Source of the DNA: a virus
Length of the DNA: 64,000 nucleotides
Strand: one strand, 5' to 3'
IMG/VR virus record: IMGVR_UViG_3300018080_000099
Coordinates: 64,001 to 128,000 of that record
Positions within the stretch are counted from its first letter, which is position 1, and every line of letters begins with the position of its first letter. The notes beneath the pieces are model-generated. The model had not been told where the DNA came from. It was given only the letters and a program-made list of their open reading frames with translations, and searched no databases. This document shows positions 21,234-62,151 of the stretch, piece by piece. The position numbers were made by a program, and so were the translations under genes.

Positions 21234-21528
21234 TGTGGTATTGGATGTAGATGTCAAAGAAGCCTTGAAAAAGTTAAGGAAAACAGAAAACGTTCAGGAC
21301 TTCCTTGAGATAGTTGAGGAGGAGTTCGGTGTCATCTTTGTTGACAAAAAAGATGGCGATGATTGGGTGAACGTAAAGAAGTCAATGGGAACCGAGCCTT
21401 TCTATAACTTGCTTGTTGATGCCATCGAGGCTGGCGACCTGAATCTTGAGTTGCTTATCGGGAAGGTTGCCATGAAGAAATTATTGAAGGACGGAAAAGC
21501 GATTGAACATCAGGGGCAAAAGGAATAA
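21208..21528 (+). CDS. hypothetical protein
   Basis: start MVIKLTG after a GGAGGAG RBS. Confidence 0.4.
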   Translation: MVIKLTGTNVVLDVDVKEALKKLRKTENVQDFLEIVEEEFGVIFVDKKDGDDWVNVKKSMGTEPFYNLLVDAIEAGDLNLELLIGKVAMKKLLKDGKAIEHQGQKE

Positions 21529-22000
21529 GAGGGTTCGGAGGCTAACAGGGACTGCAAAAACGATTTTACGGAATGAAGTCTATGTTGATAATCCACACAT
21601 ACAGTCACGAGCCTCATACATAGAACTGATTACAGCCTACCACAAGGAGTGCAATGACTCTTGGTGGAGATGGCTGAGGTTCCGTGATGAGTGGATGATG
21701 GACCAATTCAAGAAGTACGGAAGGCTTACATGTTGTCACTGTGGTAGAACGAACTTAAAGTTCAGCGGGAACAAAGAGGATGTAGCAACAGTTGACCACA
21801 TCATTCCGACTTCAAAGGGTGGACCAAAGTACGATGTTACTAACTTCCAATTGATGTGTAGCCGGTGCAATAGCAAGCGCGGAAACAAGTCAATGGAAGA
21901 GTTCAGAACTTTTTATCCGGGAGGACAGTATGCCGGGCGGAATCAAGGACAAGCTAATCGAACTAGCAGAAGGCGTAATAGCCGAGCTAAATCTAAATGA
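21503..22000 (+). CDS. HNH endonuclease
   Basis: CCHCG...VDHIIPTSKGGPKYDVTNFQLMCSRCNSKRGN. Confidence 0.7.
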   Translation: MNIRGKRNKRVRRLTGTAKTILRNEVYVDNPHIQSRASYIELITAYHKECNDSWWRWLRFRDEWMMDQFKKYGRLTCCHCGRTNLKFSGNKEDVATVDHIIPTSKGGPKYDVTNFQLMCSRCNSKRGNKSMEEFRTFYPGGQYAGRNQGQANRTSRRRNSRAKSK

Positions 22001-22121
22001 TGACATGGACACTTTCTATGAAGTCCAAGAATTCATCATGGACAACTGGGACTTCGAGGTAACGGTATCGGAGCTGGTTAAGGAGTATGTGAAAAAACAT
22101 CCCGAGCTGAAGAAATAACCC

Positions 22122-22150
22122 TTGACATAACCTGTACCGTGATGTATATT
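22122..22150 (+). promoter_or_regulatory. conserved phage promoter, family copy 4
   Basis: TTGACAtaacctgtaccgtgatgTATATTAatgg. Confidence 0.7.
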
Positions 22151-22200
22151 AATGGTATAGTTGGACTTCCACACTTACCACTCACTCAAGGGGAGGCATC

Positions 22201-22662
22201 ATGGCTTTCGTATTCGAAGGAAAGGAGTACGGCTCCAAAGCCGCCGTTGTAAGAGATTTATATGATGCTGGCGAAATCTCAATGGCATCGGATTCCAAAA
22301 AGTCCATAGCTGAAAAGCTTGGCATGACGGTTCAGACTGTCCACGCTACACTTGTCAAGCACACAATGGGAGCTGTCAAAGTTTCCAAGCCTGCCGATGG
22401 CAAAACCCCTACGATAAAGCCTGCTATTCAGCAAGCCGTTCAGACCGCAAAAAACAGGTCGAAGGGGAAAGCAATCTTTATCAACGACAAGTCCGAAGAG
22501 CTTCAAAAGGAACTGAAGAAGGACCCGAATCGTATCAAGGTGACTTGGGCTCCGAATCAGTGGGGATTGCCTGTAACCAATCCGCCTCTTGAAGTAATTG
22601 ACGATAACTATGACCCGAACTGGCTTCCGCCGCCTGAAGAGTCGGTGGACATGCCCTATTAG
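22201..22662 (+). CDS. hypothetical protein
   Basis: 153 aa, RBS AAGGGGAGG. Confidence 0.5.
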   Translation: MAFVFEGKEYGSKAAVVRDLYDAGEISMASDSKKSIAEKLGMTVQTVHATLVKHTMGAVKVSKPADGKTPTIKPAIQQAVQTAKNRSKGKAIFINDKSEELQKELKKDPNRIKVTWAPNQWGLPVTNPPLEVIDDNYDPNWLPPPEESVDMPY

Positions 22663-22675
22663 GAGAAATAAAGTA

Positions 22676-22888
22676 ATGGTTGTATGTGCTAACTGCAAAC
22701 AAGAAATGGCTTGTGTCAAGACTGGTGCCTACGTGCGATACAAAGAAGGCACTGAAGTCTATCCCGGTGACAAGTACAAGTGCTTCCAATGTGGGGCCGA
22801 AGTGCATGTATGTACGGGTGAGCACTTCACCGAGAAGAAGGACGAGATTCCGAGAGAGGCGATACGTGATGACTTATGGATGGAATGA
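22676..22888 (+). CDS. small zinc-ribbon protein
   Basis: CANC...C...CFQCG; RBS AGGAGA. Confidence 0.45.
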   Translation: MVVCANCKQEMACVKTGAYVRYKEGTEVYPGDKYKCFQCGAEVHVCTGEHFTEKKDEIPREAIRDDLWME

Positions 22889-23256
22889 TAGAAGCAAATG
22901 CCAAGCTCGTGTTCTACACAGTTTGGATTATCGCCCAGTGTGATAAAGCAATCATTGACTATTACCGCTGGTTTTACAATAGAAGGTATCACATCCTCTT
23001 GACACAACCAAGGCACGGAGCACACATTTCCGTTGCTCGTGGGGCGCAAGAAGGAATTGAACCGGGAACGTGGGAAAGGAATCTGGACGGACCTGAAATA
23101 ACTTTCTGGTACGACCCGAATCCTGACGAAGAAGAAAAGTATGTGTGGCTCAAAGTGGTGAGCCCGGACTTGGAGAAGGTCAGAACTGACATCGGACTTT
23201 CACCAAAACCACCGGGCGATTATCACCTGACACTTGGGAGGAAGGATTTTGGCTAA
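22876..23256 (+). CDS. hypothetical protein
   Basis: 126-aa ORF. Confidence 0.4.
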   Translation: MDGMIEANAKLVFYTVWIIAQCDKAIIDYYRWFYNRRYHILLTQPRHGAHISVARGAQEGIEPGTWERNLDGPEITFWYDPNPDEEEKYVWLKVVSPDLEKVRTDIGLSPKPPGDYHLTLGRKDFG

Positions 23257-23442
23257 CGAGATGGCAGAGGCTTTCAGAAGCGACATCTACAAGTACCTCA
23301 ACAAAAAGAAGAAAGAAGTCCTTGAGTACATGGTGGGCGAGAAGAAGCCAAAGTCCAAAGCCGGGGGGTTCACTACTAAGGTGGATAATGAGTTGGCATT
23401 GTTGGTTGATGAACTTAACGAGATGATTTCGTTTGTTGACAG

Positions 23443-60604: not shown

Positions 60605-60899
60605 GTGCGAGCTTTTTTATTATTGCAGTATGCTCAAACTACTGATTCCGTGATGGTTTTTAATTATCGCAGACTACCATCACAAAACTGCTATATAATT
60701 CAGGACAACCTCTTCCCCTGGCCGAACCCAAGCTCTATGCTCAAACCCTTCTACACCCCTGTCTAATTTTCAAAGTTTTAGTGGAAGTGTCACTGATGGG
60801 CGAGTCGTTCGGGACTTCTCACACACGAGGTTCCTGAATGTTGGTGGAGAGCACTGAATTTCACAGACTGTTTTACCGGCTTTAACGGGAATCCATATT

Positions 60900-60975
60900 T
60901 GGTGGAGATAAAGAGAGTCGAACTCTAATCACTCTGGTTGCAAGCCAAAGTAGCACTCACGGCGCGTCTATCCCC
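60900..60975 (-). tRNA. tRNA-Ala(UGC), G3-U70 present, CCA encoded
   Basis: acceptor GGGGATA / TATCTCC with a G3-T70 wobble; anticodon loop CTTGCAA; A73. Confidence 0.65.
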
Positions 60976-61536
60976 GAAATATTTATTTACTTCTTTTTCA
61001 ATTAAATGCTTAAAATTACTGTGCATATATTGGTGGTGTGTTGGACACATTGGTATTAAGTTTTCAGGTGAATTATTTTTGTGATTTCCATCATAATGAT
61101 GAACTGAAACTATTTTATCCTCACCACAAATTATACATTCTTTTTTATGAAACTTAAAACAAATTGTTCTATATTTGGATAATCCATATTTTTCAGCTTT
61201 CTTTTTACCACCAATAGAACAAGCGCATTTTCTCGAACAAAAATATTTTTCTTTTTTAGGAAACTGATTTCTTCTTTCAGTAACTAAAAATGGTTTTTTA
61301 CAAACTTCACAAATAACTCCAAAATCTTTAAGCTCTCCAAACTTAATATTTAATATTTTTTGTTGAGCTTTTTGTAAACTTTTAGTTTGATTTCTTTTTG
61401 GATTTTTATTACACCATCTTGTATGATTAGCTTTTTCACTAGTTGTTTTGAAATCAAATTCATTTTTACAATACTTACAGCTCCACATAAATCCTCCTTT
61501 AAGAGTATTTATATGTGGAGAGGTTAAAAATTGCAA
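60925..61536 (-). CDS. HNH endonuclease with multiple CxxC fingers (AT-rich)
   Basis: VHHYDGNHKNNSPENLIPMCPTHHQYMH; the 3' end of the ORF call overlaps tRNA-Ala. Confidence 0.55.
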   Translation of the reverse strand: MQFLTSPHINTLKGGFMWSCKYCKNEFDFKTTSEKANHTRWCNKNPKRNQTKSLQKAQQKILNIKFGELKDFGVICEVCKKPFLVTERRNQFPKKEKYFCSRKCACSIGGKKKAEKYGLSKYRTICFKFHKKECIICGEDKIVSVHHYDGNHKNNSPENLIPMCPTHHQYMHSNFKHLIEKEVNKYFGDRRAVSATLACNQSD

Positions 61537-61567
61537 GAAAATACAATTTTATTTCTTTCCAAAGTAG

Positions 61568-61641
61568 TGGAGCTGGTCGGACTCGAACCGACAAACTTCT
61601 TCCGTGCAAGGGAAGCGCTCTCCCAATTGAACTACAGCCCC
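61568..61641 (-). tRNA. tRNA-Ala(UGC), second copy, G3-U70 present
   Basis: acceptor GGGGCTG / CAGCTCC; anticodon arm CTTCC CTTGCAC GGAAG. Confidence 0.75.
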
Positions 61642-61647
61642 AAAAAA

Positions 61648-61725
61648 TGGTCGGTGTGGAGGGATTCGAACCCCCGACAACATGGACCCAAACCATGCAC
61701 TCTGGCCAGACTGAGCTACACACCG
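61648..61725 (-). tRNA. tRNA-Pro(UGG), canonical, CCA encoded
   Basis: C1-G72, A73; anticodon arm CATGG TTTGGGT CCATG. Confidence 0.8.
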
Positions 61726-61726
61726 A

Positions 61727-61800
61727 TGGTACTGCGTAGGGGAATTGAACCCCTGTATCCTGATAGAAAGTCAGGTGAACTACCACTATTCTAACGCAGC
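61727..61800 (-). tRNA. tRNA-Glu(UUC), copy 2
   Basis: body nearly identical to the 53872 copy; acceptor differs (GCTGCGT). Confidence 0.7.
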
Positions 61801-62151
61801 ATTTATATTTATTAAACCACTATGAATTTCCCCATGACAGTTGCGACAAACAACAACACACTTATCAATTTCTTTAAGCAGTTTGTCCCAATTACATCTA
61901 TTCACTAATCGACTTACTTCAAAATCCTTATCATTTTTGTTGAGGTGATGAAAGTCTAATGACTGAGTACATTTATTATACCCACATACAACACAACCTT
62001 TTTCAACCTTTTTATTTTCAACAAAATTAGAAACAGACTTTTTATATTGTTTGCTTTTTGTTAGGTATCTGTCCTTATTATCCTGATAATGCTTCTTAAC
62101 ATTTTTGCGATTACATTCACGACAATAATACTGATAATCTTTTCCTTTCAC
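61786..62151 (-). CDS. HNH endonuclease
   Basis: LDFHHLNKNDKDFEVSRLVNRCNW...CVVVCRNCHGEIH. Confidence 0.55.
   Translation of the reverse strand: MKGKDYQYYCRECNRKNVKKHYQDNKDRYLTKSKQYKKSVSNFVENKKVEKGCVVCGYNKCTQSLDFHHLNKNDKDFEVSRLVNRCNWDKLLKEIDKCVVVCRNCHGEIHSGLININAALE

Follow-up and report, generated by a model that had tools for sequence, protein, structure and literature searches.

HNH nuclease genes of three kinds, probably including seven selfish insertions, in a tRNA-rich stretch of a ~264-kb phage

The 64,000-nucleotide (nt) stretch of viral DNA considered here, hereafter the window (positions 64,001 to 128,000 of the IMG/VR record IMGVR_UViG_3300018080_000099), carries ten genes encoding HNH nucleases (H1-H10), six of which lie within a large array of tRNA genes. 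Very probably these genes are of three kinds, namely seven AT-rich selfish genes (H2 and H4-H9), the resident H3 together with the conserved H10, and the lineage-specific H1, the small SEC-C-motif gene beside H2 being intact. The seven AT-rich genes are best regarded as candidate free-standing homing-endonuclease-type genes acquired horizontally, as indicated by their domain identity, composition, gene-order polymorphism, control hairpins, promoter-motif enrichment and homolog distribution, which are all read directly, and by analogy with the seg and mob genes of phage T4.

The window is part of a ~264-kilobase (kb) phage. Its sequence is identical to parts of a metagenomic contig of 263,805 base pairs (bp; ENA ERZ27256796 k141_2651556), and its proteins are 98-100% identical to those of a 264,037-bp JGI contig; the window runs across the ends of the ENA contig, which makes the assembly a circularly permuted one. 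By megablast, no nucleotide similarity to GenBank phages was found except within a tRNA. Genes run on the plus strand up to ~34.2 kb and on the minus strand thereafter.

Identity and location of the HNH genes

A previous reading of the window, hereafter the sequence-only reading, had reported at least nine HNH endonuclease genes, a count that is confirmed and exceeded. All nine reported open reading frames (ORFs), H1-H9, match PHROG 'HNH endonuclease' families (E 1e-9 to 3e-34), and Pfam HNH, HNH_3 or HNH_5 profiles are matched above the gathering score by H1-H5 and slightly under it by H6, H7 and H8, H9 being without a Pfam match. A tenth gene, H10, surfaced when the nine proteins were compared with the window by tblastn, and an HNH fossil was found at 53399-53491. 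The catalytic His...Asn...His/Asn residues and the CxxC zinc ligands, as read in the translations, are intact in all ten genes (e.g. CSRCG...VEHIDGN...NLDLICPNCH in H5, CVVCG...FHHL...CRNCHGEIH in H9 and CVYC...DHVIP...N...CLKCN in H3), as are the ORFs themselves. Judging from these profiles and motifs, all nine reported ORFs and H10 are HNH (beta-beta-alpha-metal) nuclease genes. They are listed below with their length in amino acids (aa), their G+C content (GC), the extent of the coding sequence (CDS) where an upstream control element is included, and their best profile matches with E-values.

13481-14068, plus strand: H10, 195 aa, GC 0.485; phrog_5200 (HNH endonuclease) 1.4e-22
21503-22000, plus strand: H1, 165 aa, TTG start, GC 0.45; Pfam HNH_5 3.1e-10, HNH 1.9e-9; between orf106 and orf153
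24047-24577, plus strand: H2, 176 aa, GC 0.33; Pfam HNH_3 5.7e-12, phrog_20891 5.9e-22; HNH_3-type with an N-terminal helix-turn-helix and a C-terminal zinc ribbon
43237-43878, minus strand: H3, 213 aa, HNH_5-type, GC 0.46; Pfam HNH_5 1e-17
51833-52246, minus strand: H4, 137 aa, GC 0.31; Pfam HNH 1.3e-6, phrog_23251 2.4e-23; stop codon overlapping tRNA-Ile(UAU) by 2 nt, ATG flush with the 3' end of an RNase P-like RNA
55616-56254 including the upstream control element (CDS 55616-56209), minus strand: H5, 197 aa, GC 0.29; Pfam HNH 1.4e-4, phrog_10822/1271 ~1e-16
57302-57724 (CDS 57302-57679), minus strand: H6, 125 aa, GC 0.35; phrog_3106/2255 ~1e-18; sole gene in the spacer between two tRNA-Lys(CUU) genes unrelated in sequence
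60010-60414, minus strand: H7, 134 aa from the ATG at 60414, GC 0.33; phrog_1271 5.4e-18; between tRNA-Thr(UGU) and tRNA-Thr(GGU), stop codon 13-16 nt inside the latter
60925-61533, minus strand: H8, 187 aa from the ATG at 61488, GC 0.28 (the lowest); phrog_8048 9.7e-9, Pfam HNH_3/HNH_2 ~5e-4 (under gathering); downstream of tRNA-Ala
61786-62151, minus strand: H9, 121 aa, GTG start, GC 0.30; phrog_2255 6.6e-28; between tRNA-Glu(CUC) and tRNA-Glu(UUC), stop codon 12-15 nt inside the latter

The starts at 60414 for H7 and 61488 for H8 are probably the true ones, because the longer ORFs run into tRNA genes; the ATG of H8 is besides preceded by a good Shine-Dalgarno (SD) sequence. Of the nine reported genes, six (51833 to 61786) are housed in the following array, as the sequence-only reading had it for most of them, those at 21503, 24047 and 43237 being outside.

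47442-63912, minus strand: tRNA array, 46 tRNA genes called by ARAGORN plus one extra by Rfam (59238-59317), i.e. 47

Several of the array genes have tRNAs of the same amino acid specificity on either side (Lys/Lys, Thr/Thr, Glu/Glu), and phage HNH genes are often intron-encoded, which would fit HNH genes housed in group I introns or inteins interrupting tRNA or protein genes. This arrangement is hardly tenable: searches at the gathering score and with E-values of up to 1 gave no match to a group I or group II intron model, all flanking tRNAs are whole, no sequence relationship links the two Lys(CUU) genes, and every HNH ORF starts and stops on its own, in a frame other than those of its neighbours. 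Other classes of homing endonucleases were not found by a regular-expression scan for GIY-YIG and LAGLIDADG or by a bulk Pfam scan of 113 window ORFs. Among the neighbours of the HNH genes that were scanned (RimK-like, methyltransferase, metallophosphatase, YqeY, tRNAs and others), no adjacency to a terminase or portal gene was seen, nor does either occur among the 25 listed of the 53 Pfam families matched in the bulk scan. A terminase-associated HNH of the HK97 gp74 type was considered and set aside, there being no terminase or portal neighbour.

Base composition

Against a window GC of 0.441, H2 and H4-H9 have a GC of 0.28-0.35 and a GC at third codon positions of 0.15-0.33, which places them no higher than the 4th percentile among equal-sized windows (1.7th percentile for H2). 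In an unbiased GC scan, these seven genes make up 7 of the 11 islands with a GC <0.35. H1 (0.45), H3 (0.46) and H10 (0.485) are of ordinary composition. The earlier statement that the reported genes are visibly more AT-rich than the flanking DNA is thus upheld for seven of the nine, H1 and H3 departing from it.

Presence and absence in related phages

The relatives used for comparison are syntenic contigs of the same phage lineage (45-73% protein identity; labelled L0xx) recovered by protein look-ups. Neither GenBank megablast nor IMG/VR scans yielded any close relative, and a metagenome scan by radical-SAM alignment gave relatives of ≤48% identity. At the syntenic site, an HNH counterpart is missing for eight of the nine reported genes, the exception being H3; in other words, the HNH genes lie between genes that are adjacent in relatives, as seen for H1 and H2 with L064, L067 and L068 and for H4-H9 with L073.

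In the left arm, the order metallophosphatase, orf~100, orf~155, SEC-C, orf~220 is common to L064/L065, L067 and L068. The orthologs flanking H1 are separated by 9-83 nt in L064, L067 and L068 vs. 672 nt in the window, and neither H1 nor H2 has a tblastn match in these three contigs. The SEC-C gene is directly followed by the orf225 ortholog in L067 and by a DUF1737 gene in L064, with no H2 in either.

In L073, the array comprises 40 tRNAs in 8.2 kb, the order of which is collinear with that of the window (Pro-Ala…Ser-Thr-Thr-Thr…Lys-Leu…Arg-Asp…Arg-Arg…Ile-Val-Val-Gly…GroES-Ser-Leu-Ser-Ser-DUF488-methyltransferase-RimK). At the positions of H5-H9 its spacers measure 6-8 nt, including 8 nt for Lys(CUU)-Leu (H6), 8 nt for Thr(tgt)-Thr(ggt) (H7), 8 nt from Ala to the next tRNA (H8) and 6 nt for Ile(gat)-Glu(ttc) (H9). 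Where the window has a metallo-beta-lactamase (MBL) gene, the RNase P-like RNA and H4, L073 has two non-HNH ORFs, with no H4 counterpart before Ile(tat). The polymorphism is reciprocal, since the sole array HNH of L073 sits between Pro(UGG) and Ala(UGC), where the window spacer is 6 nt and empty. Six intact HNH copies and the fossil account for much of the roughly twofold length of the window array relative to that of L073 (16.5 kb vs. 8.2 kb). Elsewhere in the lineage, L005 has an H9-like gene that stops at tRNA-Asn and an H3-like gene that stops 5 nt short of tRNA-Arg, and an H7-like fossil lies 3-6 nt before tRNA-His in L004/L013.

Resident and older HNH genes

H3 has orthologs of 65-72% identity in L070, L072 and L073, downstream of RimK and upstream of the orf342/orf439 pair. 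Because it occupies the same locus in these relatives and is better conserved than the neighbouring RimK (58-66%), H3 is a resident conserved gene of the lineage, the role of which is probably non-selfish. The sequence-only reading had counted this gene too among the homing endonucleases and had held that the same genes at the same loci in homologous phages would speak against insertion; comparison with relatives found eight of the nine sites free of HNH genes and H3 at its locus in all three relatives examined, so that homing is abandoned for H3 itself. H10 has a full-length homolog of 53% identity in L067 (10021-10608), and is probably resident as well, i.e. conserved in the lineage though at a different position. 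As for H1, it is probably lineage-specific with an ameliorated composition, being either an older insertion (the probable case) or a gene lost in the relatives.

The example of H3 could be extended to the whole set, all HNH genes then being resident domesticated nucleases that serve the phage as packaging-associated HNH, junction resolvase or weapon against competing phages. Such a view can draw on the constancy of the H3 locus in three relatives and its conservation above that of its neighbours, on the H10 homolog of L067, on the matches of H1 and H3 to PHROG 'endonuclease VII' families, and on the intactness of all ten ORFs. It is nonetheless decidedly unlikely, as eight of the nine reported genes have no syntenic counterpart, seven are extreme GC outliers, fossils show that such genes are dispensable, and unrelated phages hold the closest homologs. 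The HNH genes of one genome should therefore not be lumped together, composition and synteny separating the selfish insertions from the resident H3.

Of note, L073 carries between its H3 ortholog and an HSP20 gene (16357-17469) a Cas12f1-like/TnpB-type gene (TNB domain) without counterpart in the window, which is a further mobile nuclease type in the lineage.

Homologs outside the lineage, paralogs and decay

Homologs of H9 were found in 439 GenBank phage records and those of H5 in 143, with hosts ranging from Enterobacteria to Streptomyces and Synechococcus. In the four phages inspected, namely Felix O1, Pectobacterium phage Wc4, Klebsiella phage KP12 and the T5-like HdH2, the homolog is part of a tRNA array, shares the orientation of the tRNAs and stops 1-12 nt inside the tRNA that follows. 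HNH genes have been described as core genes of some viral tRNA clusters (PMC6409571), and six HNH homologs were reported in Felix O1 in a paper that mentions neither their location in the tRNA region nor a mobility test (PMC3185647).

The two paralog pairs pointed out by the sequence-only reading are real but old, with 43% identity over 123 aa for H5/H7 and 43% over 49 aa for H6/H9. The paralogs are not recent duplicates that arose within this genome: an Enterococcus phage gene resembles H5 more closely (53%) than H7 does (43%), which argues for independent acquisitions.

Decay of an HNH gene can be seen between two tRNA genes of the array:

53399-53491, minus strand: HNH C-terminal fossil of 27 codons, LTNEMRKCIIVCGNCHNEIHEGMYKEYIAE followed by a stop codon, including CIIVCGNCHNEIH

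This remnant occupies the entire 82-nt spacer from tRNA-Arg(CCU) to tRNA-Met and continues into the latter. Over 23 aa it shares 56.5% identity with the C-terminus of H9 (tblastn, E 2.9e-5), with 74% nucleotide identity over 54 nt.

Hairpins and late-promoter-like motifs

A terminator scan flagged a hairpin over the SD and AUG of H6, after which the start regions of all seven AT-rich genes were folded. In H5, a hairpin of -21.6 kcal/mol (z -5.5, 0/200 shuffles) pairs with the SD AAGGAGG; in H6, 15 bp cover the SD and AUG (z -4.7, 0/200 shuffles); in H8, a hairpin likewise covers both (z -3.5, 1/200 shuffles). The 5' arm of each hairpin contains TATAAATA, the consensus of T4 late promoters, at 56235-56242 (H5), 57703-57710 (H6) and 61506-61513 (H8), i.e. 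17-25 nt before the start codons. The same hairpin device is found at the array HNH of L073 (z -3.9), and no SD-sequestering hairpin was found at four non-HNH starts preceded by TATAAATA. From sequence and folding, a device restricting expression to late transcripts would thus be present for H5, H6, H8 and the array HNH of L073.

The motif occurs 13 times in the window vs. 1.7 expected (0/100 shuffles reach 13), always co-oriented with the local genes:

33116, 36917, 38662, 42389, 43228, 43290, 45323, 45337, 47534, 51378, 56235, 57703 and 61506: copies of TATAAATA

Several copies stand 17-45 nt upstream of starts (RimK-like gene, orf342, H5, H6 and H8) and one 7 nt upstream of tRNA-Ser(GGA), while those at 43290-43297 and 43228-43235 are respectively inside and just past the 3' end of H3, upstream of the next gene. 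This distribution suggests that the uncultured phage has a late transcription system of the T4 type. A scan for sigma-70 promoters and terminators gave no enrichment over shuffles (36 vs. 30.8). The TATAAATA-in-hairpin device also supplies a promoter motif for annotating this phage lineage. Taken with the hairpins, these motifs suggest that selfish nucleases are under late control in the style of T4 in an uncultured ~264-kb phage lineage as well. A hairpin combined with a late promoter has been described for I-TevI, I-TevII, I-TevIII, segB and mobE of Aeromonas phage Aeh1, where read-through RNA is silent and transcripts starting internally are translated late (PMC2988022).

H2 is arranged differently: its start overlaps the SEC-C gene by 22 nt, with neither a promoter nor a hairpin of its own, so that it looks like a promoter-less cassette similar to those among the T4 seg/mob genes.

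The SEC-C gene beside H2

23892-24068, plus strand: SEC-C-motif gene, 58 aa, GTG start with GGAG 9 nt upstream; Pfam SEC-C 3.5e-10

The sequence-only reading had noticed this ORF upstream of H2 and interpreted it as a frameshifted remnant ending exactly where the endonuclease starts, the insertion having disrupted or been appended to a resident gene. The ORF exists and overlaps the HNH start by 22 nt instead of ending there. In favour of a remnant, its frame differs from those of both neighbours, each of which it overlaps, and the upstream Pyr_excise-like gene matches only positions 1-158 of the 309-position phrog_624. This interpretation is scarcely credible. The SEC-C motif, of the form CxC...C[HC], is complete, at the extreme C-terminus of the 58-aa ORF; an exhaustive HMMER search returned standalone homologs of 54-62 aa (45-65% identity) that align end to end, including the N-terminal block; and orthologs of 57-58 aa (62-66% identity) occur in L064, L067 and L068 next to different neighbours and without HNH. 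The ORF ends in ...KKCHGKLT before its stop, at the same length as these orthologs, which speaks against both disruption and appending. It also matches phrog_30159 (a 69-position profile) and was called in the JGI contig (P0172). The Pyr_excise-like gene is itself full-length, its L064 ortholog being likewise 152 aa (69.5% identical), and the SEC-C ORF has no match to phrog_624, so that a Pyr_excise-like gene split by the HNH gene was rejected too. Standalone full-length homologs, together with orthologs at syntenic positions in three relatives, show the SEC-C ORF to be a small resident gene that is intact and unrelated to H2.

The tRNA array and its cargo

Besides H4-H9, the array hosts non-HNH cargo, namely GroES, a macro-domain protein, an Apyc1-like MBL, PTH2 and a B12/radical-SAM protein. 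A comparison of window 47000-64000 with L073 1-8300 shows that four of these have no counterpart in the collinear relative, i.e. the B12-binding radical-SAM gene (57812-59131), the PTH2 peptidyl-tRNA hydrolase gene (56533-57039), the Apyc1-like MBL gene (52500-53312) and the macro-domain gene (49511-50002). In addition, tRNA arrays hold dozens of near-repeats of 27-40 nt (T-arm and acceptor-arm sequences). The HNH genes could accordingly be seen as passive cargo shuffled by recombination between repeat-rich arrays, their own nuclease being irrelevant and many of them perhaps inactive, since such repeats could support recombination and the radical-SAM, PTH2, MBL and macro-domain genes are also variable relative to L073. 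Passive shuffling is, however, unlikely: none of the ten genes has lost its catalytic or zinc-binding motifs, the SegB precedent is nuclease-driven, and both this phage and L073 have kept the HNH-specific control hairpin, which implies that expression is under selection.

Duplicated isoacceptors in the array are mostly unrelated in sequence (≤76% identity); only the tRNA-Glu(UUC) duplicate is recent (95%), and its similarity ends at the tRNA borders. An HNH-plus-tRNA cassette as the source of duplicated isoacceptors was rejected, the duplicates being mostly unrelated and the Glu(UUC) pair giving no filled/empty footprint.

Several features of the array stand apart from the HNH genes. The extra tRNA at 59238-59317 (minus strand) scores 36.8 bits with Rfam and was overlooked by ARAGORN. 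Sub-threshold tRNA-like elements or isolated T-arm-like repeats, which may be decayed or unusual tRNAs, occur on the minus strand at 59863-59942, 60903-60975, 63198-63283, 51272-51306, 55448-55483 and 54468-54515; one extends over the 3' end of H8, and an otherwise unexplained 839-nt gap between tRNA-Ile(UAU) and tRNA-Val(UAC) contains others. Many of the array tRNAs outside class II exceed the usual length (Cys 94 nt, Gln 90, Asp 90, Asn 91, Ile 86 and Pro 88; e.g. 50015-50108, 50348-50437, 54314-54403 and 63290-63380 among others, minus strand), which suggests enlarged variable or D regions, or small insertions. Weak matches to the YrlA (Y RNA-like) model are also found in tRNA arrays, at 54435-54505 and 63612-63685 of the window (minus strand, 23-24 bits) and at 3126-3191 of L073 (35.6 bits, E 6e-5).

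The RNase P-like RNA next to H4 deserves separate mention:

52247-52501, minus strand: RNase P RNA-like gene of 255 nt, catalytic domain only (Rfam RF00010)

It matches the bacterial class A model RF00010 end to end with 75.6 bits, under the gathering score of 100 (E 1e-21 to 3e-23). P1-P4 and both universally conserved P4 strands are intact, and the specificity domain of ~140 nt is replaced by ~38 nt. The gene is packed flush between the Apyc1-like MBL gene and H4, and the block formed by these three is absent from the collinear L073. An unannotated 221-nt counterpart (L074 2327-2547, plus strand; E 2e-19) is found in a cultured Microbacterium phage of ~192 kb, flush between two tRNA-Arg genes of an array and ~1 kb downstream of an HNH gene; in P1, 6 of 8 pairs covary between the two RNAs. 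No such RNA was found in the fragments of the relatives L005, L012, L013 and L073, and we found no report of a phage-encoded RNase P RNA in the literature. The RNase P-like RNA may be more novel than the HNH finding; that two unrelated phages rich in tRNA genes each have an RNase P RNA reduced to its catalytic domain could also outweigh that finding in importance.

Outside the array, a lone suppressor tRNA with anticodon CUA (labelled 'Pyl' by ARAGORN; 34202-34278, plus strand) is kept in L072 (13306-13378, minus strand) and may point to amber read-through or to stop-codon reassignment in part of the genome. The window also encodes a conserved DUF2828/DUF7788 protein (36988-38460, minus strand), 70-71% identical in L072 and L073, as well as a glutamate-receptor-like ligand-gated ion channel with SBP_bac_3, Lig_chan and Ion_trans_2 domains (18199-19212, plus strand), an unusual phage cargo.

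Proposed mechanism and weight of the evidence

For H2 and H4-H9, we infer nuclease activity, target sites, homing and, where the hairpin device is present, late-only translation. By analogy with the T4 seg/mob genes, in a mixed infection the nuclease would nick or cut a related phage's allele that lacks the HNH gene, at a conserved nearby site, quite possibly inside a tRNA gene as for T4 SegB, and recombinational repair would then copy the HNH gene and neighbouring markers into the recipient. For H5, H6 and H8, burial of the ribosome-binding site and AUG in the hairpin would leave read-through array transcripts untranslatable; only transcripts initiating inside the hairpin, from the TATAAATA of the 5' arm, would be translated, and expression would thus be harmless. 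Old copies would decay, as exemplified by the 27-codon fossil.

Several points weigh against considering these seven genes as acquired selfish elements. The relatives are all AT-rich themselves (GC 0.28-0.37, all well below the 0.44 of the window), so that the low GC of the seven genes points to recent arrival from such genomes, short of proof. Of the relatives found, none exceeds ~75% protein identity, and the near-identical contigs all carry the HNH genes; the polymorphism is one of gene order between distant genomes, at which level gain is not formally separable from loss, and a single relative (L073) spans the array. An empty-site footprint at the nucleotide level, sought by aligning Thr-H7-Thr with the Thr-Thr of L073, was given up, the tRNAs being too diverged (57-86%) and misaligned by MAFFT. 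By folding, the hairpin/promoter device is absent at H2 (z +0.7), H4, H7 and H9. Finally, that a gene's stop codon touches or enters the 5' end of the tRNA following it was discarded as an HNH-specific sign, because non-HNH genes end likewise, namely radical-SAM (+1 nt), orf70 (+1), orf97 (-5), orf67 (+8) and GroES (+9); the tight junction is a matter of general array compaction.

On balance, the proposal of the sequence-only reading that free-standing homing endonuclease genes spread via tRNA-gene flanks fits most of the genes, with eight of nine sites empty in relatives, seven GC outliers, scattered homologs and three T4-type devices, and does not fit H3. Beyond it, one can conceive, if doubtfully, that the array HNH genes are vehicles of a mobile pool specific to tRNA arrays and shared across phage lineages, which would recognise conserved tRNA-gene motifs and, by co-conversion, move tRNA-processing cargo (including the RNase P-like RNA) between unrelated large phages.

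Comparison with known systems

The closest parallel is SegB, a homing endonuclease of the T4 tRNA cluster that recognises the tRNA T-psi-C motif (PMC2330249). Like the array genes here, segB is free-standing, sits tightly between tRNA genes and is missing in related phages that have homologous tRNA regions (PMC2330249). As at H5, H6 and H8, a late promoter is combined with a hairpin sequestering the ribosome-binding site (PMC2988022), and segB spreads along with neighbouring tRNA genes, as the array genes would. Unlike them, SegB is of the GIY-YIG and not of the HNH type, it is one gene in a cluster of 8 tRNAs vs. six plus a fossil in an array of ~47, and its activity, target site and homing have been demonstrated, whereas the present phage is known only as metagenomic contigs.

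The mobA-E genes of T4 and mobE of Aeh1 resemble them in combining an HNH domain with a separate DNA-binding or zinc-finger module and in lying between genes conserved in relatives; mobE is furthermore under hairpin and late-promoter control, and other mob genes are promoter-less cassettes, as H2 appears to be (PMC2988022). These mob genes adjoin nucleotide-metabolism genes instead of tRNAs, and are thus likened to the present ones by arrangement.

HNH ORFs of Felix O1-, T5- and V5-like phages (AF320576 ORF97, HdH2 gene 62, KP12 and Wc4) are homologs of H9 or H5 (36-41% identity) that share the array location, the orientation of the tRNAs and a stop codon that falls on the 5' end of the following tRNA or within it. 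They differ in belonging to unrelated, smaller phages (84-146 kb), where they are mostly annotated as hypothetical or not annotated. The Pfam HNH_3 family includes I-HmuI-like phage nucleases, I-HmuI being intron-encoded; H2 matches this family and has an added helix-turn-helix, but is free-standing. The colonisation of phage tRNA clusters by genes of the homing-endonuclease type is therefore already known, and the genes of the present window add new examples of it.

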